Shown here in pieces: positions 32,088-62,483 of a stretch of 64,000 nucleotides of DNA. Within the stretch, counting starts at the first letter, position 1, and each line of letters begins with the position of its first letter. The position numbers were made by a program, and so were the translations under genes. The stretch is from the NCBI GenBank assembly GCA_039189765.1, contig JBCCYL010000009.1:32001-96000 (forward strand), given 5' to 3'. The notes under the pieces are model-generated. The model did not search any database and was not told the DNA's origin. It saw nothing but the letters and a program-made list of their open reading frames with translations. The DNA comes from Cyanobacteria bacterium P01_F01_bin.150 (GTDB lineage: Bacteria; Cyanobacteriota; Cyanobacteriia; CAKZMO01).

Positions 32088-32137
32088 GATTTTTTCTCAC
32101 TCCTAACGGCTTATTTTTAGGTTAATTTGCAAATCTC

Positions 32138-33919: not shown

Positions 33920-33962
33920 AAAAAATGGGGCCGATTAGCTAAAGGGAACTTATTTTGGAGTC

Positions 33963-37085: not shown

Positions 37086-37602
37086 GGCGGGGGTATGCCT
37101 CTTAAAAACGGGGGAACCACTCTAATCAAGAAAGTGGATAATGCTTGATAGTAGAAATATCAGGAATTTTCCACCAATGCAAGGGATTTGCATTGAAAAT
37201 TCTGAGGTAGAGAATAGGGTTAATGACAGTGTTTTTTGGGGGGCGATCGTTTGCCGTGTTTGAATTAATGCCAAATTATGCGCCGAGCTACTGAAGCGTC
37301 AGTGGCGATCGATTCTCTCAATCTATAGATATCTTTGCGATGCTTGATTAACAGAATAATAACTACTTATTTTTCATCAATCGTTCAGGCGAAAGTTGTT
37401 CCACATACGATTGAATTTGTAGCTGAATCGATGGTGTATTCATGGACGTATCTCCAAGAGACAGATATATGTTCAAACACTAGAACTATTTTTTAGGTTG
37501 ACATAAGGTGTCAACACTAATCGTTATAATATTAGAACATCTGAATTAAAGGGTCAAACAAAATTGTATTTCTCGCAAATCCCTTGATGTTGCATTTATC
37601 GC

Positions 37603-37720
37603 CTTGGCTACTGAAGTTATGGCTACACAAACGAAGTCTACCTCCGTGGACTAGGGCGATCAAGAATTCTGGTAACCCACGCAGGCGGGTTTTGTTTGTA
37701 TAGCCTTAGTTTCAACGACT
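37603..37720. mobile_element. MITE-like element (family B, copy 2)
   Basis: GGCTACACAAACGAAGTCTACCTCCGTGGACTAG...AACCCACGCAGGCGGGTTTTGTTTGTATAGCC is colinear with 18463-18584. Confidence 0.8.
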
Positions 37721-37839
37721 TCGCTTTTTTGACTAAAATAGCAAACCCCAGAAGGGGAACTCTTACTTACGTTCAGAGAGAGTTCTCAAGAAGCTTAGAG
37801 TAATGTAAGACATTTGCCTCAAAAGTTTGCATAGCCGAA

Positions 37840-38712
37840 TTATTCTGTGGGACTTTCGCAAAGAGTCATCTTAATTTGCTCCAGCCGTTGGGCCAACTCA
37901 GGGGACGGATTTTCCACTGAAAATAGGGCGTCGAGACTGTCATACAGCAACCGTAGATCATGCTGAATAAAGAAGCGCGATCGCCGCAGCGCCAATTCCT
38001 CAGCCGTTGCCCCACTGGAGTGAACTTGCTCCTCTAGCTGAGATAGCTCTGCGTCTATCATGCGTCGGTCTTCGCTCCCTAAACGTTCCAATAAAAGTGG
38101 GTCAGTGGATGCGCCATCGGACGTTATGCCGACAAACGTCAAGGTATAAAGCTGTCCTGGCTGTAACTCTTCTCCCGCATATCGCACGGCAGTATCAGTA
38201 GGCTGAACTGAGTACGTCCACATCTTCTGATTGTCTAGCAAATTGCGGACAATAATCTGACTGACATCCCCCTGCCACACAATCAGGGGGCGATCGGTCC
38301 ACACCATAAATGGCCCATTACGGACCTCTTCTAACTTGAATGCATAAGGACTAATCGGACAGAACTTGGAGGTTCGGCTTCCCCCCGGTTCACCCCATCT
38401 GAAAAAATCGACTAAATCATCAGCCATTTCAGACACCGAGCCAGTGCCCGGTTCATCCCAATCACTATCAAACTCTTCCTCTCCCTGATCATTACCGGAT
38501 GTCTGTCCGATTAGAGATGCCTGTCCGATTGGAGCGGACAGGGACTTCTGCCGCTGGGCTAAATCAACGGGGGCAAATGGGGCTAGTGGTGAAACATTAG
38601 CGCCAAACGATAGAGAGTGTGTAGCGATCGCTATAGATGTATGAGCCAATCCCAAACAGCCAAGTAAGACAGTAAATGCAGCACACCGATATAAACGAGA
38701 GGAATTAAACAT
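37840..38712 (-). CDS. DUF928-like exported protein
   Basis: Signal peptide, PGGSR..C.ISP, W.DRP..VW, YAGEELQPGQLY, L.YD.L; start overlaps the CHASE2 gene stop. Confidence 0.75.
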   Translation of the reverse strand: MFNSSRLYRCAAFTVLLGCLGLAHTSIAIATHSLSFGANVSPLAPFAPVDLAQRQKSLSAPIGQASLIGQTSGNDQGEEEFDSDWDEPGTGSVSEMADDLVDFFRWGEPGGSRTSKFCPISPYAFKLEEVRNGPFMVWTDRPLIVWQGDVSQIIVRNLLDNQKMWTYSVQPTDTAVRYAGEELQPGQLYTLTFVGITSDGASTDPLLLERLGSEDRRMIDAELSQLEEQVHSSGATAEELALRRSRFFIQHDLRLLYDSLDALFSVENPSPELAQRLEQIKMTLCESPTE

Positions 38713-41455
38713 TGGGCTTTCTCCGCAATACACGTAAAATATAAATCCAAACCAATACAGTGGGTAGGGTCCAGGGCAACAAAACGCCTGCTGAAATATA
38801 AAGCTGAAGGCTGGCCAGACCAGATAGTCCCGTTAAACCAGTAAATCCCAGCGTTAAGCGACGCCGCTGAAGATGAGTCCATTGGGAGTGAGGATAAGCC
38901 ACCTTAATCCACTGGGCCGTCACATAGCCAAAAAGTGCGGCGATCGCCACGACCCAACTATCCGGCACATGAATCACCTTACGCTGCGTCAAAAAATGGT
39001 GAACCATATAGGCATGAGCTTCGCCTTTGGGGAATGCTTCTTTGGTTCCAGATGGGAGAGGAGCGTTTGTAGTTGGATCGCTGATTAGATGAGACACTGG
39101 CGGAAAGATAGAATACCAATGTTTTGTAGCGCTAGGCAACGGTTCATTATCCTTGGCCTCATCAATTCCCGCTTCTGTATATCCCCCTGGTACGATCATC
39201 ACTGTCCGCCCCGATAAATCTAGTGACTGATCTAATACCGATTCATCTAATAAGGCCCAGGCTGGAATTCGGGCATACACCGCATCTGGAGGAATAGAAA
39301 AATCTAATAGTTGGGCAAACCATGTCTGACCAAACTGTTTATTGCTCCATAACGTTAGTGGGTGAAAGCGCGATCGCTCTTGAACGCGCTCTAAACGGTA
39401 CAGAGCATTAACAGCTTCAGACGTTAACGATATATTTGGAACTTGAGCACTATCAACAGGTGGAGATAACTCCACCGTATTTATAAACTGAGCGCGGAGA
39501 TCGGCTTGATTACTGCGGCTAGGAGGCTTAATCTGTGCAGCAATATCTGGATCCTGAGTGGCTTGCTGCAAAAGCGATAACAGATACGCAAATGGGCAGC
39601 GATTTAGGCGACAATCATCCCCAGGCGCTTGGAGGGTCATATATCCCATTAGGACATCAATATGAGCGCCCATCATCCATGAGGGCTGAGCAATTTCACT
39701 TTTTTGATTAACGCTGACTTCTTGTCCATCTTCACCAATAATAGACGCAAAAACCAACCACATTTCTTGATCAACCGCTTGATTGACTGCCTCCTGTAAG
39801 CGCTGGTCCATTTTAGGATCATCAGCCGGACGATCAAGAAGATAATCGATGCCAATAATGGATGCTTTTTGTTGAGCTAACGTCTGGATTAAATCAGCAA
39901 GGTAACTGCGATCAATTGGGAATGGGTCTCCCATTCGCCGATCTTTCTTCAAAGATTCTTCGTCTACCTGCACCAGTACAACAGGGGGGGAATCTGTGGC
40001 CGGAACCTGGTGGGTAAGTTGGCGATAGATGGCTTGGGTGCGTAATCGCTGGTCAAGACCGATCGACTGAGCGCTGGGCAGTAAGCTGAGGCCGAGGCAG
40101 GCAGTGAGGGCGATCGCTTCATACCTTAAGGGAATTAGTGTTTTAAGCTTTTGTCTCAGTCCTCTTTTCGGAATTCGAAATAGGGTTGCATCAGGATGGC
40201 AAAAAAGCGAAGGAACTAAATTAGCAGAGGGATAGGTAAATTGCTGCTCTAGCTTGAGCCATTGACAGGCTGACTGCATGGCTTCTTGCACATCTAGATG
40301 ATTCGCTAAGCTCTGCATAAATTTCCACAAGAAGGCTTGGGCAACCCGAGTATGGATTGGCTCCCGCATCACTACAACTTGGCTCAAGCCCAAATCCATC
40401 AAAAACTCGGCAATATCTAACCCATTACAGGAATTAAACAGCGCAAACTGTAGCCCCTTTTCCTTCGCAATTGATAAAGAGGGCGCTAACTCCTGCATAG
40501 TAATAGATGACCCTGGAGCAATGGCAAGCTGTCCGCCCATCAACTCTTTCTCATTACTGTGTCCGGCAAAAAGCAATAGATCCCAGCCATCATCATCGGC
40601 GATCGCCTTACAGACACGAATCTTTACCGCTTCTGGGGATTGATTTGGCTGCCAGCCCTCAAACGTGATATCCGCAATATTGGTTAAAGACTGAACCGCC
40701 TTTCGATCTTCGCGAAAATCTAAACCCGTGCTATCTCCTAAAATGATTAAGATTCGGGGACGACGATGACGACGATAGCGAAGGTGAGTCGCACCCGAAG
40801 CAGCATGAATTGTCAATGAACTACGAACAATCTGTACTGAATCTCTAGTGGCGAATTCGGCCCCTATTTCCCAAGTTTCCCAGGGAAAACGAGCCAGTTC
40901 AAGCGGATAACAGCTAAGAAAAAGGCGGGTTTCCATCGCCTGCTCAGGTAGTTGCTCCGTAGTCGGTTGCTTCTCTTGCTTTGGCAAATCTAGTGATGTT
41001 GTGCCCCGTGACTTTACTCCAGCAATAGTGGCACGGACTTCAAATAAGTCACTATGCCGTAACCAACGTTGAAATTCATAGGTTAAGGTCGTTTCTGCCT
41101 GGACTAAACGCTCATGCCAATCAGGTGGGGGAAGATTCACTGAACCCCCTGTGACTGCTTTTCCTCGCAAAGAGTTACTGGGTTTTGAGCTAGCACTATC
41201 CGTTACCAAAGAGTTTGGATCGGTAGCAAGAACCCTATCTTTAAGACGATCAGCACTCCGGAGTTCCATATCCGAAAGTTGCGAATAAAACGTAAGGTAT
41301 TGTCGTTGCCAATCTTGATATCTTTTTTCCAGAACAGAGGGATAGGGCACACGCGCCATTATTTTCTGCCCTTGTCCCCAAGACAGTTCAAATAAACAGA
41401 CCGCCTCAACGCGTTGAACCTGTAGATAAAAGTGACGGGAAGATTGGGAAACCAT
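38705..41455 (-). CDS. CHAT-CHASE2 transmembrane protein
   Basis: LARFPWETW, LLFAGHS and LFNSCNG (CHAT His/Cys), a TM, CHASE2 (VVLVQVDEES, RSYLADLI, IGIDYLLD, GEAHAY), then 3 C-terminal TMs. Confidence 0.9.
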   Translation of the reverse strand: MVSQSSRHFYLQVQRVEAVCLFELSWGQGQKIMARVPYPSVLEKRYQDWQRQYLTFYSQLSDMELRSADRLKDRVLATDPNSLVTDSASSKPSNSLRGKAVTGGSVNLPPPDWHERLVQAETTLTYEFQRWLRHSDLFEVRATIAGVKSRGTTSLDLPKQEKQPTTEQLPEQAMETRLFLSCYPLELARFPWETWEIGAEFATRDSVQIVRSSLTIHAASGATHLRYRRHRRPRILIILGDSTGLDFREDRKAVQSLTNIADITFEGWQPNQSPEAVKIRVCKAIADDDGWDLLLFAGHSNEKELMGGQLAIAPGSSITMQELAPSLSIAKEKGLQFALFNSCNGLDIAEFLMDLGLSQVVVMREPIHTRVAQAFLWKFMQSLANHLDVQEAMQSACQWLKLEQQFTYPSANLVPSLFCHPDATLFRIPKRGLRQKLKTLIPLRYEAIALTACLGLSLLPSAQSIGLDQRLRTQAIYRQLTHQVPATDSPPVVLVQVDEESLKKDRRMGDPFPIDRSYLADLIQTLAQQKASIIGIDYLLDRPADDPKMDQRLQEAVNQAVDQEMWLVFASIIGEDGQEVSVNQKSEIAQPSWMMGAHIDVLMGYMTLQAPGDDCRLNRCPFAYLLSLLQQATQDPDIAAQIKPPSRSNQADLRAQFINTVELSPPVDSAQVPNISLTSEAVNALYRLERVQERSRFHPLTLWSNKQFGQTWFAQLLDFSIPPDAVYARIPAWALLDESVLDQSLDLSGRTVMIVPGGYTEAGIDEAKDNEPLPSATKHWYSIFPPVSHLISDPTTNAPLPSGTKEAFPKGEAHAYMVHHFLTQRKVIHVPDSWVVAIAALFGYVTAQWIKVAYPHSQWTHLQRRRLTLGFTGLTGLSGLASLQLYISAGVLLPWTLPTVLVWIYILRVLRRKPNV

Positions 41456-41949
41456 ATCAAATTTAATACTATGGGGGATAAAAAATATGAAATACCGTTA
41501 GTATCCCACTCTGGTTGCGGATTGAATGTATCTCACCGTCCCACAGCTAGGATTCAGAGCTGATTTCATAGGCTGTTAATGAGCACACTTCGTTTTGCCC
41601 AACCGACACAAACATCAGGCCGTTGAGTTTGGGCAACTCTCACCTGCCTCCTTTCATTGTTATATGTCTCACCTGCTTCTAGCTATACAAATGACGGATT
41701 AAAATCCTGCCGACCCTTACCAAAATTGGCACACCCCATTGCGTTCGTTAAAAGGGCTGAAATTCCCATTTTTACGTTTATTACTCCATTTCTTGCCTTG
41801 TAAAAGTGAACCACTCTGAAAAGTGAGCGAGTTGGTCCCCATGCGTTCAGACAGTTCTCCTACGGTAAAGACATCGGGTTCGTTGGCGAGTTATTTCTTC
41901 CCAACAGCCCAAACCTCCACCGTTGCACTGTCTTAATACCGAAATTGCT

Positions 41950-44013
41950 ATGTTGAATTCCACTCATGATCCGCTTTACCTTACTTCTGACATCACAAAG
42001 GTAAACTTGAGCCCAGATTCCAAATCTTTTAGCGGCACTTTGGGCACTGATGATACACAACTCTATGCCTTTCAGACTAAAGACCCCAGCAGCCTATATG
42101 CTGAAGTTGAAGGAGAAGAGGTCGTCGTTACCTTAGCAAAAGATATTAATCAGGACGGCATCATTAGCCGCGATGAAACTCTGGCTAACTCCCGCTCCCG
42201 CTCTACCTCCTTTTTCTCTGGCCAGGCGTCTGATACGACGATTCAAGGGCTAAATGCATCCAACTTATCCAGCGACACGTTTTATCTACAGGTCTCTGGC
42301 TCTGGTGAGTACACTCTTTCGGCGTCCCTAAATGAGGCGATCGCCCCAACCTCCACCTCCACCTCCAGAAGCCGTAATGCATTCTCTAGTAGTGGGCAGC
42401 GCATCTCCAAAAAGAACTGGAATGCCAGCTTCCTCAATCTCTCCAGTCGTAGATTGAGGGACTACGACAGTTATGATTTTAGTAATGCCAACGCGGTCTA
42501 TGATTTGGGCAGTCGCAATAAAAAAGGTCGCATTGCCGCCAGACTCGAATTCGACTTTGGCAATAGCAGCCCCGAGGGAGTCAATTCCAGCAAGTTTGCC
42601 ATGGAAGCCTGGACGCGGGTGCGCTTGGCCAGAGGAAAGTTCTATCGGCTTAACGCAGTTTCCGATGATGGCATTCGCTTCGAGTTTCGAGACAGAAAGA
42701 CGGGCGAAGTGATTACAGAACTTGAGGGAGACTGGAGCGATCGCAGCCTCGACGATCCCGCCTATACCCAACTGCTGACTGCACCCAAAGGCGGCAACTA
42801 TGACTTCTATGTCCAGTATTACGATCGCCGGGGATACTCCGCCGCCGATGTCACCATAGAAAAAGCTAGACTCAGAGGCCAAGTCACCTCTTCGGCCCTT
42901 AATCTTCGTAACGGCCCCAGCACCGTCAATACGTCTACCATTGACACTTTGGCCCAGGGAGAAACCTTCCGCATCGTCAGACAGGTAACCTCTCCCACCG
43001 ACTCTACCTATCGCAACTGGTACAGAGTTGTCACCAGTGACAAGCAAAAAGGCTTTATTGCTGCGGATTCAAGATTTATAGATATTACCAATGACACCAC
43101 TGATGTGATCACGGTGGAAAATGCAGCCGATATTACTCCTCCCCCCTTATTTCCTGACAGCCCTACAGTTCCTGATAACGGCGGTGTAGACAGTGGCGCT
43201 GATTCCTCCAAAGGAATTATTAGCTCCAAAGTCTGGATTACCTCCGATGACAAAATTGCATTCCGTAATGACAAAAGCATTTCCGGTACCCAGCTTGCAC
43301 GCTTGCCTGAGGGCACCCCTGTGACGATTTTGAGCGAAGAAGTGGGTGGACGCTACTTAAATGATTTCGACCTCTGGTACAAAATTCAGGCAAACGTTGG
43401 GGGCGTCACTCAAGAGGGATATGTCGCCGCATACTATGTAGAGCGTACTACTTTTAACGGCACCTACGGCACATCAATTTCCAAAAGTAATGGCTCCTAC
43501 GCTCATCATATTGATGAAGCCACCAACGCTCGCTTTGACCCCAAAAACTCCAGCTACCGCCCCTTAATCGAAGACGCGGCCAGCAGATATGACTGGCTAG
43601 CGCCATCAGTGGTGGCAGGCATTGGCTCCCGAGAATCTGCCTGGGGTCGCTTCCTTAGCCCCCAAGGGCCAACCGGAACAGGAGATGGCGGCCACGGTCG
43701 CGGTCTAATGCAAATTGACGATCGCTTCCACCAAAGCTTTATCAACTCCGGCCAGTGGACCGACGCCAAAGCTAATATCAACTACGGCATCGACAATGTG
43801 TTGAGCGACTACTACGACTACTTGGATATCAGCACCAATCTAGAAGGCAAGGATTTATTGAGAGGCGCGATCGCCGCCTACAACGCTGGTCCCCAGAGCG
43901 TCCTTAACGCCATTAACCAAAACCTGGATATTGACTACTACACCACCGGACAGGACTACTCCTGGGATGTATTAAATCGGGCAGGCTGGTTCCAATCCCA
44001 CGGCTGGGCGTAA
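41950..44013 (+). CDS. Multidomain peptidoglycan hydrolase: PPC-like + PA14-like + 2x SH3b + goose-type (GH23) lysozyme
   Basis: SDDGIRF (PA14), LNLRNGPST..WYRV and WYKI..GYVA (SH3b), AGIGSRES, GRGLMQID, AAYNAG, TTGQDYSWDVLNRA. Confidence 0.85.
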   Translation: MLNSTHDPLYLTSDITKVNLSPDSKSFSGTLGTDDTQLYAFQTKDPSSLYAEVEGEEVVVTLAKDINQDGIISRDETLANSRSRSTSFFSGQASDTTIQGLNASNLSSDTFYLQVSGSGEYTLSASLNEAIAPTSTSTSRSRNAFSSSGQRISKKNWNASFLNLSSRRLRDYDSYDFSNANAVYDLGSRNKKGRIAARLEFDFGNSSPEGVNSSKFAMEAWTRVRLARGKFYRLNAVSDDGIRFEFRDRKTGEVITELEGDWSDRSLDDPAYTQLLTAPKGGNYDFYVQYYDRRGYSAADVTIEKARLRGQVTSSALNLRNGPSTVNTSTIDTLAQGETFRIVRQVTSPTDSTYRNWYRVVTSDKQKGFIAADSRFIDITNDTTDVITVENAADITPPPLFPDSPTVPDNGGVDSGADSSKGIISSKVWITSDDKIAFRNDKSISGTQLARLPEGTPVTILSEEVGGRYLNDFDLWYKIQANVGGVTQEGYVAAYYVERTTFNGTYGTSISKSNGSYAHHIDEATNARFDPKNSSYRPLIEDAASRYDWLAPSVVAGIGSRESAWGRFLSPQGPTGTGDGGHGRGLMQIDDRFHQSFINSGQWTDAKANINYGIDNVLSDYYDYLDISTNLEGKDLLRGAIAAYNAGPQSVLNAINQNLDIDYYTTGQDYSWDVLNRAGWFQSHGWA

Positions 44014-44014
44014 T

Positions 44015-44092
44015 TTGAATTTTGGATTTTAGATTTTAGATTTTGGACGGGTAAAAATTAAATCCAAAATCTAAAATCCAAAATCTAAAATC
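44015..44092. repeat. Inverted arrays of TTTT(A/G)GA heptamers forming a long hairpin between convergent genes
   Basis: TTTTGGATTTTAGATTTTAGATTTTGGA ... TCCAAAATCTAAAATCCAAAATCTAAAA. Confidence 0.85.
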
Positions 44093-44095
44093 TGT

Positions 44096-45121
44096 TTATC
44101 CATTCCGACTCAACGCCGTGATCATTGCCTGCTGGCTGACCGACTGGTAAACCGTATCCAAATATTGACGAACGGTTTGGGCATCATTGGGAGCCAGGGG
44201 CATTTTTCCTAATACGTCCAGTACGGTTTGGGCGGAGCCGGGGGGAGTGATTACCACTAGGGAAGGATCTAAGGGTTCGTTGTATTGCCAGAAGGCTTGG
44301 GGATCAAAATTGTCCATGTCCAACTCTGGAGATGGGTCGGGACCGGATTCTTGACGATGCTCTTCCTGAGCGTCTACGCGATCGCCTTTTGAGGATATTT
44401 CACTTGAATTTGATTCAGTCGTAACGGTAACGGATGGTGTCTCAGTTGATTCTGGGACGCCATTTTTTTCTGAGTTGTCGTTCGCAGTATCTTCAGCAAT
44501 ATCTTTGCTATCTTTAGATGCTGCATCGGGTAATGAGGTCAATAGGGGCGACCCTCCACTACGCTTTTGGCGTACCGCTTCCAAAATCTGACTTTTGGAA
44601 CGGCCCCGGAGTTCAAATAGGACAAACGGATCTTCTCTAAAAAAGTCCCCTAGCTGGTAGTAAACTGCGGCAATATGCTTACAGGGATTTTTGGGATCGG
44701 GGCAGTTGCAGCGCGATCGCACTTCCGCTAGCTTAAACGGGAATAGGCTGAGGCCATTGGCGGTAAAGACAGCTTCAATATCATCGGGCATTGTCCCAGC
44801 TAGCAGCTTAGCGGAATAAATCGCTTTTTCGGCAATGCTGCCTATGACATAATCCCAATCCTCGTCACTAAAGCGTTCGATGGAAATCTGAAGTTTATAA
44901 GGTTCATCTGCGGTGCCCTGTACCGTGGCGTAGACCTTCCCCTTCCGGAACTCCATATGCAGGATATTGCCTTCACGGGCATAGATCCGCCCACGCTCTA
45001 ACCGTTTTTTGAAGCGATAGGTATTGAGCAAGTCAACCCAGCGTTGGACCCACCATTCCTGTTCAATGGTTTCCCCTGTGGCTTGTACCGCCTCATTAGC
45101 GGCAGGCATCTGTGCAGTCAT
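44096..45121 (-). CDS. SWIM zinc-finger protein
   Basis: RLERGRIYAREG, VQGT..PY, CNCPD..PCKHIAAV, DPF.LF.LRG. Confidence 0.92.
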   Translation of the reverse strand: MTAQMPAANEAVQATGETIEQEWWVQRWVDLLNTYRFKKRLERGRIYAREGNILHMEFRKGKVYATVQGTADEPYKLQISIERFSDEDWDYVIGSIAEKAIYSAKLLAGTMPDDIEAVFTANGLSLFPFKLAEVRSRCNCPDPKNPCKHIAAVYYQLGDFFREDPFVLFELRGRSKSQILEAVRQKRSGGSPLLTSLPDAASKDSKDIAEDTANDNSEKNGVPESTETPSVTVTTESNSSEISSKGDRVDAQEEHRQESGPDPSPELDMDNFDPQAFWQYNEPLDPSLVVITPPGSAQTVLDVLGKMPLAPNDAQTVRQYLDTVYQSVSQQAMITALSRNG

Positions 45122-46280: not shown

Positions 46281-46817
46281 TTAGGATTCTTGAGCAGCGC
46301 TTCCAGGCTGAATCAGATTCCTGACCCTGTTTTGACCGCCTTGATAAATGCGACGGACTCGATCGCCCCACTTGGCCCGATTTTGTTCGGCTTTTTGGGG
46401 AAACCAGGAAAAGATCGCCAAGTCTAGCATCAGCTCAGCCATGCGAGTCACGATCAGTAGCACTCCTGCCAGTAATCGGTAGCGAATTAAATAGTAGGGC
46501 GTAAAGGCAAAGGCGGAGAGCTGAAGAAAATTATCAAATAGTTCTTTATCCAGGTTAAACGAGACGCTGACATGCACCCGCATTAGGCTGTACCAAAGGG
46601 AAAAGACCACCAAAGTACTGACGACAAAGCCAATAAAGCCTTCCACTTTGTCCCAGGTAAACTTTAGAAAACGCTTGAAGGAAAGCCAGAGGGTACCACC
46701 AATGGCGATCGCCACGGTGCCGTAGGTAGCAACGTCAGCCCAGTCCAGTTCGCTTAGGTCTCCTAAGCTGGTCAAATCAAACTGCTGTAGCCAATCCAGT
46801 AAAAACGAGTCCCACAT
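46281..46817 (-). CDS. Small membrane protein, unknown function
   Basis: 178-aa ORF, AAGGAG SD upstream, about 4 hydrophobic segments. Confidence 0.7.
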   Translation of the reverse strand: MWDSFLLDWLQQFDLTSLGDLSELDWADVATYGTVAIAIGGTLWLSFKRFLKFTWDKVEGFIGFVVSTLVVFSLWYSLMRVHVSVSFNLDKELFDNFLQLSAFAFTPYYLIRYRLLAGVLLIVTRMAELMLDLAIFSWFPQKAEQNRAKWGDRVRRIYQGGQNRVRNLIQPGSAAQES

Positions 46818-47127
46818 TTTTTAATCACTCCTTAACAAATCCATGTGGCAATTCTGCAAGACATGGATATAAGCGTTAATGGCCTTGATATCCCTCGTCT
46901 CACACCAATAGACTAACGTGATGCTATTGGTGCTGTAGAGTACGGATTGTGCCATTGCCAGCCGATATCGCCCTTGATGACCAAGCCTTTTTACCGGGCC
47001 GCAAACGCTTAGCAGTCGTTCCTTAAGCCCCAAAAATCATGCATTTAAAAGTGCAATAATTCGGGTAGGGATAACCGCAGAGTCTGAGCGTTAGTTCCAA
47101 ATTGCTCACCATTCCTTCCATTCACCA

Positions 47128-47160
47128 GCGATCGCTCTCACTATTCCACTCAGCGATCGC
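47128..47160. repeat. HIP1 spacer array 1 (2 copies)
   Basis: GCGATCGC at 47128 and 47153. Confidence 0.7.
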
Positions 47161-47217
47161 CCTCTACCCCCAAAGACACAGTACCATTTAGGTGGGTGTA
47201 TTGATTGTTTTTCGCTT

Positions 47218-47308
47218 ATGCCAACGTTATTGAGAGTCGGTCCATATCGTTTTTTCTGCTATGCTGGTGACCCTGCTGGAGAGTTGGCATGACTTCTTCA
47301 ATGATTGA
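47218..47308 (+). pseudogene. DUF4160 (HicA-like toxin) remnant with central deletion
   Basis: ATG 47218 gives MPTLLRVGPYRFFCYAGD; another frame from 47273 gives LLESWHDFFND*, overlapping the DUF2442 start; the HxPPHxH core is absent. Confidence 0.8.
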
Positions 47309-47597
47309 TCGGATTGATACTCAAATAGTGAAGTTAGTAACAGTAACAGTAACTGATGAGTTTCTAACTGTTGATGTAATGGATGGACGGGTTATTTCTG
47401 CACCTTTGACCTGGTATCCTCGCCTGCTTAATGCATCTCAGGCAGAAAGAGAGAACTGGCGGCTAACAGGTGGAAAAACTGGCATTCATTGGCCTGACTT
47501 GGATGAGGATATTAGCATCCGGAATATTATTCTGGGTCAGCCATCTGGAGAAAGTCAAAAGTCACTCCAACGTTGGCTCAAAAGTAGAATGCAGTAG
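47289..47597 (+). CDS. DUF2442 family putative antitoxin
   Basis: L.VD..DGR.IS.PL.WYPRLLNAS..ER.NW...GIHWPDLDEDIS. Confidence 0.92.
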   Translation: MTSSMIDRIDTQIVKLVTVTVTDEFLTVDVMDGRVISAPLTWYPRLLNASQAERENWRLTGGKTGIHWPDLDEDISIRNIILGQPSGESQKSLQRWLKSRMQ

Positions 47598-47604
47598 TTT
47601 TTGA

Positions 47605-47783
47605 GCGATCGCCCCTCTCATCATAACTTGCGACAACGCGATCGCCCCCAAATTCCACAACAGCGATCGCCTCCAAATTCCACAACAGCGATCGCCCTCA
47701 CAATCCCAAACAGCGATCGATCCCACCACTCCACTAAAAAGCGATCGCCATTACAACCTAAAATCCCCACAATCAGCGATCGC
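47605..47783. repeat. HIP1 spacer array 2
   Basis: GCGATCGC at 47605, 47638, 47663, 47688, 47741, 47776 plus a variant at 47713; periods 25-35 bp. Confidence 0.9.
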
Positions 47784-47817
47784 ATACAATTACTCTGGTG
47801 CTCTACTCTGGCTTGGG

Positions 47818-48117
47818 ATGGCGATACGTAATTTTCAGAACAAGGCAACGGAAGATATCAACTATGGAGTAGTTTCAAAAATTGCGCTGAAGCTCCTTCC
47901 TCAAGAGTTGCATCGAAAGGCGCGAATTAAATTAGCGAGATTAGGTGCTGCCACTTCGATTCAGGATTTGCGAGAATTGAAAGGAAATCGGCTTGAAGCA
48001 CTGAAAGGGGACAGAAAGGGACAATATAGTATCAGAATTAATGATCAGTATCGGATTTGTTTTAAGTGGAAGCAAGATTATCCATACGATGTTGAGATTG
48101 TTGATTATCACGATTAG
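47818..48117 (+). CDS. higB: HigB (RelE/ParE family) toxin
   Basis: GNRLEALKGDRKGQYSIRINDQYRICF..VEIVDYH. Confidence 0.95.
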   Translation: MAIRNFQNKATEDINYGVVSKIALKLLPQELHRKARIKLARLGAATSIQDLRELKGNRLEALKGDRKGQYSIRINDQYRICFKWKQDYPYDVEIVDYHD

Positions 48118-48132
48118 AGTGGAGATAAGTTC

Positions 48133-48420
48133 ATGACCATACAACATGTTACGTCAATTCATCCTGGAGAGGTTTTACAAGACGAGTTAGAGGAACTAGA
48201 TATTTCACCCGAAATCTTAGCCGAGCACATCAAAGTTCCCATAACGAATATTTTGGATATCTGTAGTGGTCAAAAGGATATTGATGCAACGCTTGCCATT
48301 AAGCTTTCACGCGCATTAGGAGCTAGTCCTCTGTTTTGGCTTAATCTTCAAAACAATTGGGAATTAAGTCAAATTGATGAGTCCGCTTACCAGGATATTA
48401 AACCTGTCGTAGCTGCTTGA
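48133..48420 (+). CDS. higA: HigA family antitoxin (HTH)
   Basis: IHPGEVLQDEL, A.KLSRALG.SP.FWLNLQ. Confidence 0.95.
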   Translation: MTIQHVTSIHPGEVLQDELEELDISPEILAEHIKVPITNILDICSGQKDIDATLAIKLSRALGASPLFWLNLQNNWELSQIDESAYQDIKPVVAA

Positions 48421-48421
48421 C

Positions 48422-48653
48422 GCGATCGCCCCTAAAAATCTCACCAACGAGCGATCGCCTCCACAAAGTCCATCAACCAGCGATTGCCCTCAAAACTCCA
48501 CAAGTCAGCGATCGCCCTTCACCAATCCACCAACCAGCGACGCCCCTCCCATCATAACTGGCAACAAAGCGATCGCGTTCCAGCACCAGGAGCGATCGCT
48601 TTCCAAACTCCACAACAGCAGTCGATCCCACCACTCCACGAAAAAGCGATCGC
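48422..48653. repeat. HIP1 spacer array 3
   Basis: GCGATCGC at 48422, 48451, 48508, 48569, 48592, 48646 plus variants at 48480, 48537, 48618. Confidence 0.9.
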
Positions 48654-48679
48654 ATTTCTGACTCTCTACATTCCTAGGA

Positions 48680-49006
48680 TCAGGCACTCTTCTTTGTTGC
48701 CGTCTCTTTTTGAAGAAGAAAATCAAGGTATTCTTCGAGTTGAAGAAGTCTAGGTTCTGATAGCTGTCCTAACTTGTCTAGAATTGCTTGCTGCTGTTGC
48801 CATTGTTGCAGGGGCATGATTTGTGATGCTGCAACTTCTACAGTGACATTAGGAACGTCAAACCCTTCTAGGCTATAGCCATCTTCCTCATTTTCAGGCA
48901 TGGCGTAATATTCCACGACTGTGGCACGATCGCCTCTCTTGAGACGATATTCGGGAATATCTTCGGCCAGGGCAACTTTGGAAAACAGAGGGTGTTGGCT
49001 GCTCAT
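48680..49006 (-). CDS. DUF4926 domain protein (putative antitoxin/immunity) with a short DUF2281-like tail
   Basis: LFSKVALAEDIPEY.LKRGD.ATVVE..GYSLE; tail L.QL.E..L.QL.EYLDFL; ATG 49006 overlaps the upstream stop. Confidence 0.8.
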   Translation of the reverse strand: MSSQHPLFSKVALAEDIPEYRLKRGDRATVVEYYAMPENEEDGYSLEGFDVPNVTVEVAASQIMPLQQWQQQQAILDKLGQLSEPRLLQLEEYLDFLLQKETATKKSA

Positions 49007-49335
49007 AAATTTTCTCCTTTGTCTGGCACTAGGGTAACAAATCTGGTCACTGTGGGAGTCACCATCCAGATCGTTTTGATGTTTAGTTCTACTCCATTTT
49101 CTCCTACCAGAGTGGCTCGGATGCAATATTTCTGTCCGTATTTGTTGGTTTCAAGCAGTTCGGCAGGTTGAGATAAGACTTGAGTTTGTAAGTCTTCTTC
49201 TAGCTTTTCCCAGTTATCAAGCGTGTAACCTGCTTTTGCCAGAAATTTAGATTTGTCATCTTTAGGTAAGGGAATCAGTAAATACTGGGTTAGTTTTGCT
49301 TCTGGAATTGCTGCGTCTGGGGGAAGAAAAGCCAT
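49003..49335 (-). CDS. DUF6883 domain protein (putative nuclease toxin)
   Basis: IPEAKLTQYLL...DKSKFL..AGY...YGQKY.I...L.G.NG..TIW....RFVTLVP. Confidence 0.8.
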   Translation of the reverse strand: MAFLPPDAAIPEAKLTQYLLIPLPKDDKSKFLAKAGYTLDNWEKLEEDLQTQVLSQPAELLETNKYGQKYCIRATLVGENGVELNIKTIWMVTPTVTRFVTLVPDKGENL

Positions 49336-49378
49336 CGATGCACCAAACGAGAATTACTTCTATTGTAATTTAAGTTTT

Positions 49379-49650
49379 GCGATCGCTCCCTTCTCTTGTG
49401 GCCACTCCACCAGCCTGCGATCGCCCCTCTCACCATAACTTGCGACAAAGCGATCGCATTCCTCATCACTACAAGCGATCGCCACTACCAAGTCATCAGT
49501 CAGCGATCGCTCCCTAATCTGCACACATAGCGACCGCTTTTTGTCCCCCTAATAAACAGCAAGCGATCCTCACAACTCTACACACTGCGATCGCCTACCA
49601 AAACTCCATAAGGGTGTTCGCTCTCCATAATACCCACAATCAGCGATCGC
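49379..49650. repeat. HIP1 spacer array 4
   Basis: GCGATCGC at 49379, 49417, 49450, 49475, 49503, 49587, 49643 plus variants at 49530, 49563, 49614. Confidence 0.9.
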
Positions 49651-49684
49651 TCTCCACAAATCTATAACAACGAGAACTGTCTGA

Positions 49685-51217
49685 TTATGCTATTTCCAAA
49701 TGTGTTAAAGGCGACATCATTTGACGACAATACAAAGAGTGACACAGTTGATTTTTTTCATCAAACCAAATGACGCCAATTTTTCTATCTAAACACATAT
49801 ATTCTTGTAACCATGAAACCACAGTTGGTTCATTAGGAAAAACAAGACACAATATTACGTCATAGCCTATGATATGTTGATACCTGAAACGATACTCATA
49901 TAGTTGACTAATTCCTTTTCGAGATTGACTTAGGAGATTATCTCTCGTCGTACTTTTGACCTCAAAAATGAATTTCTCTCCGTTAGAAGGTAATTGAGCA
50001 AAAAGATCAATATGTTCATTTTCGGTTGACTCAACACCACGTTCTTTAAGATAAGAATAGAGCTTCTCCAGAATTATCTTGTGATTCAGATTTGCTCTTT
50101 GCCGCTTAATTCTAGTGATTTCTGGGTCAGCATAAACTGGCTTCTTCAATTTTTTATTTTGAGGATTAGACTCCTCAAATTTTAGAGGCTTAAACTCGTA
50201 TATACTCTCTGATTTCTGAATTTCTATTTGATTATCAGAGGAAATATCAAGACCTTGAAGCTCAGTATAAATTTTAGGATCTTCATTTGTCAGGATTTCA
50301 ACCGATTCTGCACTTAGTGTTTTGATACCGTCAAAATAATCACCCCAGGAACAAATCCTGACCTCATCTAACAGATCATCAGAGCTTGATGCCTTATCAA
50401 ATCCCCGAAACTCAGTTTGTATAGCACTAATTGCATTTAATTTAGCTTCAAGCTGGCGTCTATCGGATTGACTAACATATCTTCTAAGTCTAATTGCATC
50501 ACGATCAGAAACCAACAAATTAGTATGCTTTAGAATATGAAAACGACTCTCATATTTCTGAGGCGGAAATAAAGTACCGTTACGAGACTTTTCTAGTACA
50601 CAAATCACATCATCTAAATTTGGATTAGCACGACTATTTGTTCTAGGATGGTTGGCTAGAATAAAAACTTCTGACCGAGATAAAGCTGCATTAAAGAGGC
50701 TAACATCTCGCAAGAAAGAGTCAGCCTGAATACCTTTGCATATAAGCCTTAAGGGGGATAAATGTATATTATTTTTGACAAATTCTAAAGTTCTGTCACG
50801 TGTGTTAGATTGTATCCTTACATTATTAGAATTTGTTTGATAAGCAATACCCATGCCGTTTGGATACTGAAATAGTGTAAGTTGAAGTACCATAAAGGAT
50901 GATACATTTGGCTCTTCGCAAACTAAAAATCGCCTGGTGGTTTCGCTAATAAATATATGCCAGATTCCATCTTTAAGTGCAACTCTGTATAGCCCTAAAT
51001 ACGCAGGGTAAGCACTTATCTCATCTCTAAATTTAGAAGGATCTCTTGCGACCTTAGATGCTCTTGGACTGATTTTTGACAAACGAGCTTCGATTGCTTT
51101 TCGGTCGTAAGGTTTTCCATCAAATTCGGAAAATATAGTCGCAATATCAATCAGCTTATCCGACCAGTCGTCACCACTTGAATGAATTTTATGACTAAAT
51201 AGATCTTTTATTTCCAT
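49685..51217 (-). CDS. Putative restriction endonuclease with C-terminal PD-(D/E)XK domain
   Basis: IDLFAQ..FIFEVKS..RKGISQLYEY; overlaps the 3' end of a C5-MTase by 23 bp; AT-rich. Confidence 0.7.
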   Translation of the reverse strand: MEIKDLFSHKIHSSGDDWSDKLIDIATIFSEFDGKPYDRKAIEARLSKISPRASKVARDPSKFRDEISAYPAYLGLYRVALKDGIWHIFISETTRRFLVCEEPNVSSFMVLQLTLFQYPNGMGIAYQTNSNNVRIQSNTRDRTLEFVKNNIHLSPLRLICKGIQADSFLRDVSLFNAALSRSEVFILANHPRTNSRANPNLDDVICVLEKSRNGTLFPPQKYESRFHILKHTNLLVSDRDAIRLRRYVSQSDRRQLEAKLNAISAIQTEFRGFDKASSSDDLLDEVRICSWGDYFDGIKTLSAESVEILTNEDPKIYTELQGLDISSDNQIEIQKSESIYEFKPLKFEESNPQNKKLKKPVYADPEITRIKRQRANLNHKIILEKLYSYLKERGVESTENEHIDLFAQLPSNGEKFIFEVKSTTRDNLLSQSRKGISQLYEYRFRYQHIIGYDVILCLVFPNEPTVVSWLQEYMCLDRKIGVIWFDEKNQLCHSLYCRQMMSPLTHLEIA

Positions 51218-52322
51218 TACTTAAAAAATTGAGTTCTAGGATTTTAATTAACTCATCAATGCTTGGTTTTGCTTCTGTATTAAAAATATTCTGCGAAACA
51301 TATCTCGCTAAAATACCCGCAAATAGTGGTGGAACCGCATTGCCAACCTGACGAATTACATGTCTCCCAGTCCCATGAAAATCCCACCAATCAGGGAATG
51401 TTTGAATACGAGCGCTTTCTCGTGGAGTCACTTCTCGTGGGTCATAGGGATGGACATGTCCTTTCCCTCCACCTGCATCAGAACCAACAATAATTGTAAA
51501 GCTTGGTCTATCTGGATTTAATTTATTTATTCTCGTTTTTGGATCTCTTTCTCCATAGGATAAGGAATGATAACGCTCAACAATTCTTTCACTGTGCTTG
51601 CGTCCCACATGTCCATTGAGCGGCGGTTTTTTTTTCCAATCAGTGATGGGTTTAGGTAAACCGGATAGTGCAGACTGAACAGTATTAAATGGCCGACAAT
51701 CATTCAATAATGATTTTTGCTCTCCAAAAATTTCTTTTTTTACTTCTGAATGAGTTGAAAACATTTTTGGAACTTTCTTGCCAGAGCGAGTTCCAATAAA
51801 GAATAGTCTTCGTCTAAATTGAGGCACACCAAACTCAGCTAGCTCATATTCATGGTCTGAGATGGTATATTCTCCGCTCAAAGATAAAGTCTTAAGAAGT
51901 TCCTGATATAGGTTGCCATTGTGGATAGTTTTCAACCCAGTCACATTCTCAAAGATAAATGCTTCAGGCTTTATCTCGTTAATTATTCGGGCGTATTCGA
52001 ATACCAAACCACCACGAGGATCTTCTAATCCCTTTCTTCGACCAAAAATAGAGAATGCCTGACACGGAGGACCACCAATAATGAAATCGATGTTGCAGTG
52101 ACCGATCTCATTCTTGACACTTTGTTGTGATAGCTGCCGCACGTCCTGACATAAAACCGGATGCTTGTTGAGATAAGGCTTCTTCTCTTGGTTTTGCTCT
52201 AGTGTTTTACATGAGAACGAGTCTATATCAGATGATAAAACTAAATGAAAACCAGCAGCAGAAAAACCTAAGTCAAGGCCACCGCCACCAGAAAACAACC
52301 CTAGTGTGTTGATTTGTGTCAT
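51195..52322 (-). CDS. DNA (cytosine-5) methyltransferase
   Basis: LFSGGGG (I), GGPPCQ (IV), FENV (VI), QFRRRLF (VIII), RESARIQTFP (IX), QVGNAVPP (X). Confidence 0.96.
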   Translation of the reverse strand: MTQINTLGLFSGGGGLDLGFSAAGFHLVLSSDIDSFSCKTLEQNQEKKPYLNKHPVLCQDVRQLSQQSVKNEIGHCNIDFIIGGPPCQAFSIFGRRKGLEDPRGGLVFEYARIINEIKPEAFIFENVTGLKTIHNGNLYQELLKTLSLSGEYTISDHEYELAEFGVPQFRRRLFFIGTRSGKKVPKMFSTHSEVKKEIFGEQKSLLNDCRPFNTVQSALSGLPKPITDWKKKPPLNGHVGRKHSERIVERYHSLSYGERDPKTRINKLNPDRPSFTIIVGSDAGGGKGHVHPYDPREVTPRESARIQTFPDWWDFHGTGRHVIRQVGNAVPPLFAGILARYVSQNIFNTEAKPSIDELIKILELNFLSNGNKRSI

Positions 52323-52554
52323 CTATCAACGTCCAAACAATCATTAAGCTGGGTGAATGAGAATTAACAGTTGATGATGTAACTCCCACTTTAAGAACTA
52401 TAGTACCAGCTCTAGCTACTGCTGATATTGCTACATATCTAGCGTTCTCCTCAAACGCATCGGAGAGGCTATCGGTTAACGCCTTTTGAATATGGTACAG
52501 CACTCGCTCATAATAGAGGGGCATCACCTTAACAAACTAGAATACTATGTTTTT

Positions 52555-52779
52555 CCAAAACTCTAAGATATTCGCAGCACGGAAGCTACCCGTATACGCC
52601 CGGTGACTCCACAGCAGCTCTTACGCTTCGTGGACGTCTTCGGGAATGCCTTCTACCACGGTGCTGATGTTGGAATGGGTAGATGTGATCGCCATTCCAA
52701 ACAAATTAACTTCGAATGACGATAAACGGTTAGTAACCAGTCCCAGTGGCCCTGCATCCAAGAGAATTACTCGACTCAC
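52555..52779 (-). pseudogene. Decayed PIN-domain (VapC-like) toxin
   Basis: GTG 52779 overlaps the upstream TGA; reads VSRVILLDAGPLGLVTN, then a frameshifted CLEW..HL and IPED.HEA*ELL; stop at 52621-52623. Confidence 0.75.
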
Positions 52780-53486
52780 CAGCTAACCCCTTTCATTGAC
52801 GAGGGAAAGAGTTTTCGCTCCGAAGAACGGTTTTTATCGAGTGCATGGACAAGAAATTCCCCTGTTTCGCATTGTTCAGGATCATCCTCATCCAACCAGC
52901 TTTGCAACAACTGCACGCCTTCAATTGCTGAAGCCGATACTTGAGGGGTTGAAGCTACCTGCTGTTGAGCCTCAGAAGATAAGGATTGAGTCCCAGACTC
53001 TGTTGCAGCAAGCCGCATTTCTCTCAATGCATTCAATAAATAGTCAAGGTACTGTTCAAATGAATCCGCACTCTCTCCTTCGATGCCGTGATGAAGCTTG
53101 ATATATTCCAATGCAACGACTGCACAATCTACGTCTAACTCTAATGCTTGATACGTTTCCTTCAGTCTTGATAGAGCATAGTCATCAAGGGGGGCAGAGC
53201 TATCCGTAACTAAACAGTAGCTTATTAGCCTTAGGAAGAAAGTAATGTCTCGATAACAACATGCGCTGTGACGTGTATCCAAGGCATAGCTGGGAAAATG
53301 CATGTAAACAGCTTGAGACGCTTTCTGAGCTAAAGAGTCTGAACATCTTGCTAATTGCTGTGCCGCATCTAGTCTTACAGATGCCTTGTGGAAACCATGC
53401 CAAACACTTTGCATCTCAGAGTTATTTAAAAAACGAGCTTGATCATGAGCATCAGCACAGATAGCGTTTATGGTACTAATATTCAT
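52776..53486 (-). CDS. Phycobiliprotein-like domain fused to a C-terminal antitoxin-like domain
   Basis: ADAHDQARFL..E, AVY.HFP, CYRDI.FFLR.ISYCLV, PLDDY, YIK.HHG..G, YLDY.LNAL (phycocyanin-alpha-like); tail LLQSWLDEDD.EQ.ETGEFL..ALDK.R.SERKLFP..KGVSW. Confidence 0.85.
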   Translation of the reverse strand: MNISTINAICADAHDQARFLNNSEMQSVWHGFHKASVRLDAAQQLARCSDSLAQKASQAVYMHFPSYALDTRHSACCYRDITFFLRLISYCLVTDSSAPLDDYALSRLKETYQALELDVDCAVVALEYIKLHHGIEGESADSFEQYLDYLLNALREMRLAATESGTQSLSSEAQQQVASTPQVSASAIEGVQLLQSWLDEDDPEQCETGEFLVHALDKNRSSERKLFPSSMKGVSW

Positions 53487-53983
53487 ATTTTCCTATTTCC
53501 TTCAACACTAACCAGCAATATCAGAATCAATGCATGTTGTTTGTAAATGAATTTATGAGGTCGTCTTCCTTGTTTTAACATCTTCCTTTTCCTTGGAGCT
53601 ATTCAAAACCCCACCGACCTAGTAAGGCTTGTCCTGGCTGACTCCGGCCTTGGCTACCGTTACCGCGCCGTAGACCGATAGCTGATGCTGACGGAGCAGT
53701 TGGGCAATAGGCCATGCATAGGCAGGCAAGAATGCGATCGCCATTCCTAATTACTCAGAAATCCACAAAATTCTGACCTTTTCCTGACTCCTCAGCCTTC
53801 AGTGGCCTATTTCTGCCAAATAACGTTAAATACCAGGCAAGTCTGGAGCTTGACTCTGAACAAGAATCAGCCTATGTTCGTTTTTATGGCGATCGCAACG
53901 CTGCATCGGTAATTTACATCCAAGTGACTTACCGTATCAGCCCCTTGCCGTCGCTCTGGCTCAGAACTCAGGAGACTTAGCGC

Positions 53984-62245: not shown

Positions 62246-62483
62246 GATACTTTTTATACGTAGACTAATGACGGAAACTACATTCACTTTTCGGGCTTTT
62301 CCTGTCGGGTCCGCAATCCTACGGATGGATGGCTATTGCAAAGGCCTGTATGCATTGTCCAAAGCCTTGCTGATCAAGGCTTTTAAGAGTTCTTTATCTT
62401 TCATCAAGTCTTGATGAATATCCTCTGGAGGATAGACATTAAACCGTTCGTGACCAAACCCCGCTATGATGAACGATTGATGT

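Follow-up and report, generated by a model that had tools for sequence, protein, structure and literature searches.

Mosaics of short repeats and arrays of gene cassettes are both known from bacterial DNA. BIMEs, the REP mosaics of enterobacteria, and NIMEs, the mosaics of dRS3 and RS units in Neisseria, consist of a short core that alternates with a few re-used linker types; they are intergenic and often lie directly past stop codons. REP itself is an imperfect palindrome of 20-40 nt, whose copies alternate in orientation and owe their spread to RAYT transposases. Integrons, on the other hand, are recognized by an IntI-type tyrosine recombinase, an attI site, and attC sites, the latter being imperfect inverted repeats of 57-141 nt with extrahelical bases, and in the chromosomal integrons of Vibrio toxin-antitoxin (TA) cassettes lie between attC (VCR) sites. 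Here we describe a locus in a 64-kb stretch of Cyanobacteria bacterium P01_F01_bin.150 (assembly GCA_039189765.1, contig JBCCYL010000009.1 of 118,983 bp, positions 32,001-96,000; the whole stretch is hereafter called the window), in which small TA cassettes are separated by dense arrays of the palindromic octamer HIP1 (GCGATCGC).

HIP1 has been without an agreed function for three decades; current proposals link it to recombination, to chromosome structure and, in the latest case, to the uptake of DNA, according to the relevant passages of PMC5861425 and PMC13756078. Deletion and plasmid recombination at HIP1 have been reported (passages in PMC13756078; PMC9239245), with Gupta 1993, Robinson 1997 and Akiyama 1998 given as the sources for HIP1-flanked deletions and plasmid recombination (cited in PMC13756078, PMC5861425, PMC9239245), and donor DNA that contains HIP1 reportedly transforms with higher efficiency (PMC13756078). 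As these excerpts describe it, the repeat SDR5 (Elhai et al. 2008, Genome Res 18:1484) is a 21-nt module that occurs only inside HIP1, between bases 3 and 4, and Xu et al. 2018 state, with reference to Elhai et al. 2008, that no repeat of the SDR kind was found outside Nostocaceae (PMC4390886, PMC5861425, PMC13756078). Clusters of attC sites that lack an integrase have been named CALIN (PMC4889954). Our full-text literature searches did not turn up any account of HIP1 arrays next to TA genes.

Four HIP1 arrays between toxin-antitoxin cassettes

The window is cyanobacterial chromosomal DNA, carrying recF-like, ruvX, rpsB, tsf and phycobilisome-like genes, and it contains 94 perfect HIP1 sites against a mean of 0.74 in 100 shuffled sequences. 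Positions 47128-49650 contain 21 of the 94, split among four arrays on the same strand with 2, 6, 6 and 7 perfect copies (A1 to A4, respectively; Table 1). Once the seven degenerate copies (at 47713, 48480, about 48537, about 48620, 49530, 49563 and 49614) are included, HIP1 is spaced 23-38 bp apart in the arrays. A recount thus reproduced the figures of a preliminary description of this DNA, made from its letters alone, which had also placed the arrays exactly between gene modules; the spacers are indeed filled almost completely, with only 1-43 nt between array and gene ends in A2-A4.

Close HIP1 pairs, at most 60 bp apart, are nearly confined to this interval (15 of the 16 in the window), and array units do not occur in the window outside 47.1-49.7 kb. 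A census of the 39 intergenic gaps of at least 30 nt placed 21 of the 28 intergenic HIP1 sites in the four gaps around the TA pairs and the other 7 in the remaining 35 gaps. All four gaps beside TA pairs hold modules of HIP1 and linker, as against none of the five other gaps that hold HIP1. The base before HIP1 is A in 16 of 21 array sites versus 9 of 73 sites elsewhere in the window, where it is most often G (34 of 73).

In each array unit a complete HIP1 octamer precedes a G-poor, C/A-rich linker of 15-30 nt. Taken over all four arrays (548 nt), the linkers have a + strand composition of A 0.33, C 0.39, G 0.08 and T 0.20, and the C/A-rich strand is the + strand in every array, although the third cassette and the restriction-modification pair beyond A4 are encoded on the - strand. 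This strand bias, which is the same in each array, had been pointed out in the preliminary description, together with four linker types re-used between arrays, and all four types were found again in the arrays named for them.

Parts of A2 and A3 are tandem repeats in the usual sense, that is, head-to-tail copies of one unit. A 25-bp unit occurs three times in A2, and its neighbouring copies at 47638 and 47663 have 97% identity across 32 nt. Tandem Repeats Finder reported 47633-47719 (period 25, 3.5 copies, 89% matches) and 48422-48545 (period 29, 4.3 copies, 71% matches), and divergence puts A4 and the greater part of A3 beyond what this program can score. The nearly identical neighbours in A2, along with the tandem structure of A2 and A3, demonstrate at the level of sequence that units running from HIP1 to HIP1 are duplicated in place; the arrays grow in this way, and are still doing so. 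Different arrays have common blocks as well: 83 nt in A3 and A4 (80% identity), 63 nt in A2 and A3 (86%), 41 nt in A2 and A4 (95%), and a terminal block of 27 nt in A2 and A4 (85%). Blocks of up to three units have evidently been copied between spacers, all in the same orientation, and the four arrays make up a single family of mosaic repeats.

As a separate observation, the first linker of A4 (49387-49416), read on the - strand, includes GCTGGTGG, the Chi octamer of E. coli, and the G/T-rich strand of the arrays contains several GTGG runs. The former may be due to chance, and so may the latter in DNA of such composition.

Both strands of the arrays fold better than shuffled sequences, with z values of -2.4 to -7.0 for RNA and -3.2 to -7.2 for DNA. 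The minimum-energy folds contain only 8-bp HIP1:HIP1 stems with unpaired linkers, and the strong score is a trivial consequence of one palindrome copy pairing with another. Three inverted-repeat pairs were found in 46800-49800, none of them an attC-like hairpin. The region gave no match in Rfam at E values up to 1, a tRNA scan found no tRNA gene, and there were no terminator-like sites against 2.6 expected in shuffles. A spurious open reading frame (ORF) across A2, used as a protein query for further arrays annotated as genes, matched only itself. In line with the earlier remark that no integrase is adjacent, a Pfam scan of 55 window ORFs (13 + 42) detected no integrase, transposase, Y1 transposase or cas domain.

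Three established classes were considered for the arrays and rejected. An integron or attC array was discarded since there is no IntI-type recombinase domain among the scanned ORFs, the folds use HIP1:HIP1 stems and no imperfect single-strand hairpin, and arrays of constant polarity stand on both sides of each cassette, unlike the one 3' site that follows an integron cassette. The proposed analogy with attC sites was consequently abandoned, the polarity of the arrays being independent of cassette orientation. In CRISPR loci the repeats measure 23-50 nt, the spacers are unique and about as long, and cas genes or a leader are present; here the repeat has only 8 nt, the 15-30-nt 'spacers' are re-used between arrays, and the scanned ORFs hold no cas domain. 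REP or BIME elements were dismissed because of the perfectly palindromic 8-bp core, the single polarity of the linkers and the lack of a Y1 transposase domain in the scanned ORFs.

The DNA between the arrays is of another kind. The non-array part of the island (4932 bp) has no HIP1 against 6.2 expected (P 0.002), and its G+C content is 0.35-0.45 versus about 0.47-0.50 in the flanks. The cargo thus consists of HIP1-free, foreign-looking cassettes inside HIP1-saturated spacers. The stretch 49651-53733 (4.08 kb, G+C 0.35-0.42), which is likewise HIP1-free and spans the cytosine-5 methyltransferase, its 510-aa partner and the spacer beyond, looks recently acquired.

Table 1. Positions of arrays, cassette genes and related elements in the window and in other plasmids
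Feature	Position	Strand	Remarks
Array A1	47128..47160	.	2 HIP1 25 bp apart, single C/A-rich linker; 57 nt upstream of DUF4160 stub
DUF4160 stub, 24 codons	47218..47292	+	stop overlaps DUF2442 start (ATGA); aligns with N-terminus of annotated DUF4160 protein
DUF2442 protein, 102 aa	47289..47597	+	Pfam PF10387, E 7.5e-19
Array A2	47605..47783	.	6 perfect and 1 degenerate HIP1; 7 nt past DUF2442 stop, 34 nt before HigB start
HigB-like RelE-family toxin, 99 aa	47818..48117	+	Pfam PF05015, E 6.9e-16
HigA antitoxin, 95 aa	48133..48420	+	TIGR02607, E 3.3e-21; HTH_3
Array A3	48422..48653	.	6 perfect and about 3 degenerate HIP1; 1 nt past HigA stop, 26 nt from DUF4926 stop
DUF4926 protein, 109 aa	48680..49009	-	Pfam PF16277, E 1.2e-08; ATG overlaps DUF6883 stop (ATGA)
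DUF6883 protein, 110 aa	49003..49335	-	Pfam PF21814, E 2.1e-18
Array A4	49379..49650	.	7 perfect and 3 degenerate HIP1; 43 nt upstream of DUF6883 start
Array A4, other end	49650	.	34 nt from stop of 510-aa gene
510-aa protein, putative restriction partner of methyltransferase	49685..51217	-	G+C about 0.35; 0 HIP1
Type II cytosine-5 DNA methyltransferase, 375 aa	51195..52322	-	PF00145, E 1.7e-66; TIGR00675; PADLOC MTase_II
Plasmid f site 1, array			ends 6 nt from stop of MazF-family toxin gene
Plasmid f site 2, array			58 nt upstream of MazF partner antitoxin gene
Plasmid f site 3, single two-linker element			30 nt past HigA stop
Second-family modules	L059 3276-3347, 5225-5266; L076 about 2590-2735; L077 2017-2058; L069 31739-31776, 34341-34377		

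Counted from A1, the cassettes are the DUF4160 stub with DUF2442, HigB with HigA, and DUF6883 with DUF4926. The earlier gene calls hold by Pfam and TIGR matches, in the case of the DUF4160 stub by N-terminal alignment only, since the stub has no Pfam match even at E 10. HigB-like toxin and HigA pass curated cut-offs and qualify the cargo as type II TA, while DUF2442, DUF4926 and DUF6883 pass the Pfam cut-offs and have a presumed TA function. The 510-aa protein has no family match in Pfam, NCBIfam or PADLOC, and a single match to a solved structure, 8g8i_A (C3HR3_9r_shift4; E 8.6e-05), over query residues 347-416.

The DUF4160 gene has shrunk to 24 codons by an internal deletion, which left DUF2442 an orphan and retained the 4-nt overlap; the deletion joint does not fall at a HIP1. 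Tandem heptamers and octamers, e.g. GGATTTT, TTTGGAT and AAATCTA, occur at 791-925, 1031-1091 and 44014-44093 of the window and resemble the short tandemly repeated sequences known from filamentous cyanobacteria.

Recurrence of the arrays in other cyanobacteria

A uniform survey of 1,375,682 bases took in the window, 56 loci with homologues of its SWIM gene (853 kb), three plasmids of Pseudanabaena, 50 kb from one of Leptolyngbya, and smaller pieces. It yielded one further array locus, on plasmid f of Pseudanabaena sp. ABRG5-3, which was detected by BLAST with A2 at E 10. The arrays of plasmid f are built of HIP1 and C/A linkers of 20-21 nt with a period of 28-29, at three sites, the only C/A arrays in the 110,227 bp examined, and the three sites are copies of one 65-nt HIP1-X-HIP1-Y-HIP1 element in one polarity, the likeness of which ends at the outer HIP1 sites. 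With a profile of this element the top eight non-self matches in the 1.38 Mb lay in the window arrays, all on the + strand (E 0.0024-0.07), and in the reverse profile search the best non-self match was the Pseudanabaena array (E 0.027). Within the Pseudanabaena plasmids (371 kb) the array units are confined to 4.3 kb, and no integrase or transposase is annotated within 6 kb of them.

No such array was present in the 853 kb around the SWIM-gene homologues of 56 other cyanobacteria. There were no close HIP1 pairs in the first 50,000 of the 325,675 bp of the plasmid of Leptolyngbya sp. NIES-3755, a Stanieria locus did not match the profile of the 65-nt element, and BLAST of the whole region against plasmids at E 1e-5 matched no array. 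The BLAST matches of A3, A4 and the Pseudanabaena array in Kovacikia, two Nostoc and Nostoc pNLP3 (two HIP1 only) proved on inspection to be due to chance. The preliminary description had proposed a test for an enrichment of arrays next to TA genes. The sole other locus in 1.38 Mb abuts MazEF and HigBA genes, and most TA cassettes examined elsewhere are array-less. The recurrence in a distant cyanobacterium hints at an integrase-free swapping of small defence genes, although it is not proof.

A looser third case is found in an Allocoleopsis plasmid, which carries a DUF6883-DUF4926 cassette with 70% nucleotide identity to that of the window. The cassette lies between direct repeats of 82 nt that are 93% alike and have a core bounded by HIP1, and this repeat has only two copies in the plasmid collection. 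Furthermore, a second family of HIP1-bounded modules, with alternating linkers of 25 and 22 nt, is common to plasmids of Pseudanabaena sp. ABRG5-3, P. galeata and Planktothrix agardhii (Table 1). These modules occur singly or as a four-unit array, their copies are 85-91% alike, and two of them flank a pentapeptide-repeat gene on plasmid f.

The surroundings of the two array loci also share genes. CHAT, two-partner-secretion (ShlB), CHASE2 and SWIM genes cluster at 29169-45121 and 58220-62287 of the window, and families of these types cluster on plasmid f too (L060 2914-18207), about 6-16 kb from the arrays and with 37-42% amino-acid identity. A 214-aa protein without Pfam match (window 27840-28484) is 38-40% identical to short proteins that Pseudanabaena plasmids f and e carry under the annotation 'restriction endonuclease subunit R'. 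The plasmid f counterpart, the only one scanned, is HSDR_N-like and adjoins the MazEF array.

Possible origins of the arrays

The explanation that we favour, though only tentatively, is that the HIP1 mosaic repeats serve as direct-repeat joints for the turnover of cassettes by host recombination. The arrays would then be resident HIP1-saturated DNA into which short foreign cassettes have been set, and the absence of HIP1 from the island genes fits such a placement. Since each cassette lies between arrays that form direct repeats, recombination by the host itself could duplicate, delete or exchange cassettes between them, possibly by RecA acting on the longest common stretches, by slippage or illegitimate exchange on HIP1 microhomology, or perhaps by way of natural transformation, and a dedicated integrase would not be needed. 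Direct repeats on both sides of a cassette need a polarity that stays constant whichever way the genes run, and neither attC sites nor random insertion into a palindrome would give this. Unit duplication, block copying, shared polarity, foreign-looking cargo, recurrence and rarity are all in support of cassette turnover by this route, the outcome of which resembles that of an integron, whereas mechanism and family membership do not. The preliminary description had called the arrays joints or scars of cassette shuffling. Joints are in keeping with the kinship of the arrays and with the recurrence on plasmid f and in Allocoleopsis. The idea of scars, on the other hand, fits poorly, since scars of unrelated cassettes should differ in composition and the linkers are uniformly G-poor and C/A-rich. 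The observations of that description are thus confirmed, and its interpretation is partly supported.

Several results weigh against cassette turnover. The longest exact run between arrays, as judged from the alignments, is at most 18 nt, which is short for RecA-driven exchange. The collinearity of unit order is not significant (the observed score was reached in 558, 353 and 1573 of 2000 shuffles), and the claim that whole arrays are collinear copies was therefore dropped in favour of block copying, for which the block matches were retained. Neither polymorphism of cassettes nor a circle was seen in the DNA compared, and no empty site of the Allocoleopsis cassette was found in the plasmid collection. 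TA cassettes also exist where arrays do not: on plasmid e (111,135 bp) of the ABRG5-3 strain of Pseudanabaena and in 150,000 of the 152,084 bp of its plasmid b, TA-like pairs (DUF433/PIN-like, nucleotidyltransferase/DUF86, DUF6883/DUF4926 and a MazF pair) occur without any such array, and the TA cassettes examined on the plasmids of Synechocystis B12 and NIES-970 have none either. Conversely, the second family of HIP1-bounded modules in Pseudanabaena and Planktothrix sits in spacers mostly unrelated to TA genes. Nor are the loci of the window and plasmid f fully independent, as both are near SWIM, CHAT and ShlB genes and both hold HigBA pairs, with a mutual amino-acid identity of 37-54%. Finally, at the 56 loci with the neighbouring SWIM protein the best protein identity is 63-65%, and none has the island's flanking genes; three further SWIM loci are 68-75% identical over the best segment, at much weaker E values.

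The most serious rival, in our judgement rather unlikely, is that the arrays consist of selfish mini-modules, in which a unit of HIP1 and linker inserts into an existing HIP1 as SDR5 does and the cassettes are bystanders. Each insertion would create a new HIP1 target, so that modules would pile up locally. SDR5 is indeed described as a 21-nt module exclusive to the interior of HIP1 (passages in PMC4390886, PMC5861425, PMC13756078). The second HIP1-bounded family, in mostly non-TA contexts of Pseudanabaena, P. galeata and Planktothrix plasmids, points the same way, its position in such spacers implying that modules of HIP1 and linker need no cassette, and linker types do recur across different arrays. 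HIP1 is a palindrome, however, so independent insertions are expected in either orientation, and a single polarity was found in four of four window arrays and three of three Pseudanabaena arrays. Re-use in blocks of up to three units, instead of singly, is equally hard to reconcile with selfish insertion, as is the presence of modules in each of the four gaps beside TA pairs and in none of the five other gaps with HIP1. SDR4-6 share a predicted stem-loop, whereas the linkers described here are G-poor and unpaired. Neutral minisatellites, that is, HIP1 units expanded by slippage in a few spacers with HIP1 itself kept by a genome-wide process, would explain the tandem structure seen by Tandem Repeats Finder, the variable length and number of units, and the nonsignificant unit order. 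That four separate spacers have common blocks in one polarity, that the only other array locus in 1.38 Mb is again beside TA cassettes, and that 35 other gaps of the window are without arrays makes this origin very doubtful, and we give as little credit to its corollary that the adjacency to TA genes is due to chance or reflects young, unconstrained DNA.

A function as punctuation, with arrays insulating neighbouring TA operons, is improbable. HIP1:HIP1 hairpins in RNA might stop or stabilise transcripts, in a REP- or BIME-like manner, or a dense block of methylated CGATCG/GATC might bind a nucleoid protein. TA operons are sensitive to read-through, the arrays adjoin stop codons (at distances of 1, 7 and 26 nt for those of the window and of 6 nt for that of MazF in Pseudanabaena), both strands fold far better than shuffles by virtue of their 8-bp stems, and linkers that have diverged and yet are still G-poor suggest constraint. 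Set against this, the folding score is the trivial result noted above, terminator-like sites are absent where 2.6 were expected, Rfam gave no match, and the TA cassettes examined on other plasmids manage without arrays. Polarity, too, is unrelated to the direction of the adjoining gene, the sense strand of the array being C/A-rich for the first two cassettes and G/T-rich for the third and for both Pseudanabaena cassettes. Least probable of all is a true site-specific system, in which a recombinase encoded elsewhere recognises the arrays, or HIP1 in its linker context, like IntI at attC. The arrays bound the cassettes tightly, HIP1-bounded direct repeats flank cassettes in three genomes, and site-specific recombination at HIP1 is mentioned in passages of PMC4390886 and PMC9239245. 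Such a system is nevertheless at odds with the lack of an integrase, transposase or Y1 domain in the scanned window ORFs and of any such annotation within 6 kb of the Pseudanabaena arrays, with the lack of an attC-like imperfect hairpin, and with array lengths and unit numbers that vary freely, unlike those of a defined recombination site.

A bolder version of cassette turnover, which we regard as unlikely, would give cyanobacteria an integrase-free counterpart of the integron, with arrays of HIP1 and unpaired C/A linkers as portable flanks that ease the uptake of small TA and defence cassettes by natural transformation. HIP1 would then act as a signal for uptake and recombination, and host recombination would insert, duplicate or drop cassettes. 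If this is true, HIP1 gains a concrete role in gene exchange; if the arrays are only local pile-ups of repeats, they add modestly to the mosaic repeats known from bacterial intergenic DNA. The locus, with 21 HIP1 sites in the spacers of HIP1-free foreign cassettes and its mirror image in a distant genus, lends itself to direct assays of whether HIP1 density promotes the insertion, deletion or uptake of cassettes. It also extends HIP1-embedded mini-repeats from Nostocaceae to Pseudanabaena and to a lineage that is Leptolyngbya-like by its best SWIM-protein matches.

Comparison with known repeat and cassette systems

Small TA cassettes, often promoter-bearing, in either orientation and separated by related repeats of one orientation are common to this locus and to chromosomal integrons. 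Unlike integrons, the locus has no attC structure, no IntI and no site of fixed length; repeats stand on both sides of the cassettes with a varying number of units, and the mobility of the cassettes is putative. An array without an adjacent integrase is nonetheless a known state, that of CALIN. With BIMEs and NIMEs the arrays share a palindromic or repeated core, a small set of re-used linkers, and an intergenic position near stop codons. They differ from BIMEs in that the core is a perfect 8-bp palindrome that is hyper-abundant genome-wide, the linkers have one polarity, and no RAYT-like gene is present in the scanned window ORFs.

The HIP1-flanked deletions, as the excerpts cited above present them, resemble the locus in that HIP1 is a point of illegitimate or site-specific exchange, but they involve single dispersed HIP1 sites, neither arrays nor TA cassettes. 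The closest of the described systems is Elhai's SDR5 within HIP1, with which the arrays were compared by its published description. According to that description, SDR5 splits HIP1 and is confined to Nostocaceae, whereas here whole HIP1 sites alternate with several types of linker, the arrays lie beside TA cassettes, and the linkers are poor in G and stay unpaired. The units measure 23-38 nt here versus 21 nt for SDR5, and unlike SDR5, which is dispersed across many unrelated spacers, the units are confined to 47.1-49.7 kb of the window and to 4.3 kb of the Pseudanabaena plasmids. On the other hand, both systems consist of modules of about 20-25 nt that are tied to HIP1, intergenic, sometimes tandem or nested, and without an encoded enzyme. 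The reported insertion point of SDR5 is one at which insertion of 'ATCGC-linker-GCG' would yield exactly the HIP1-linker-HIP1 structure of the arrays.

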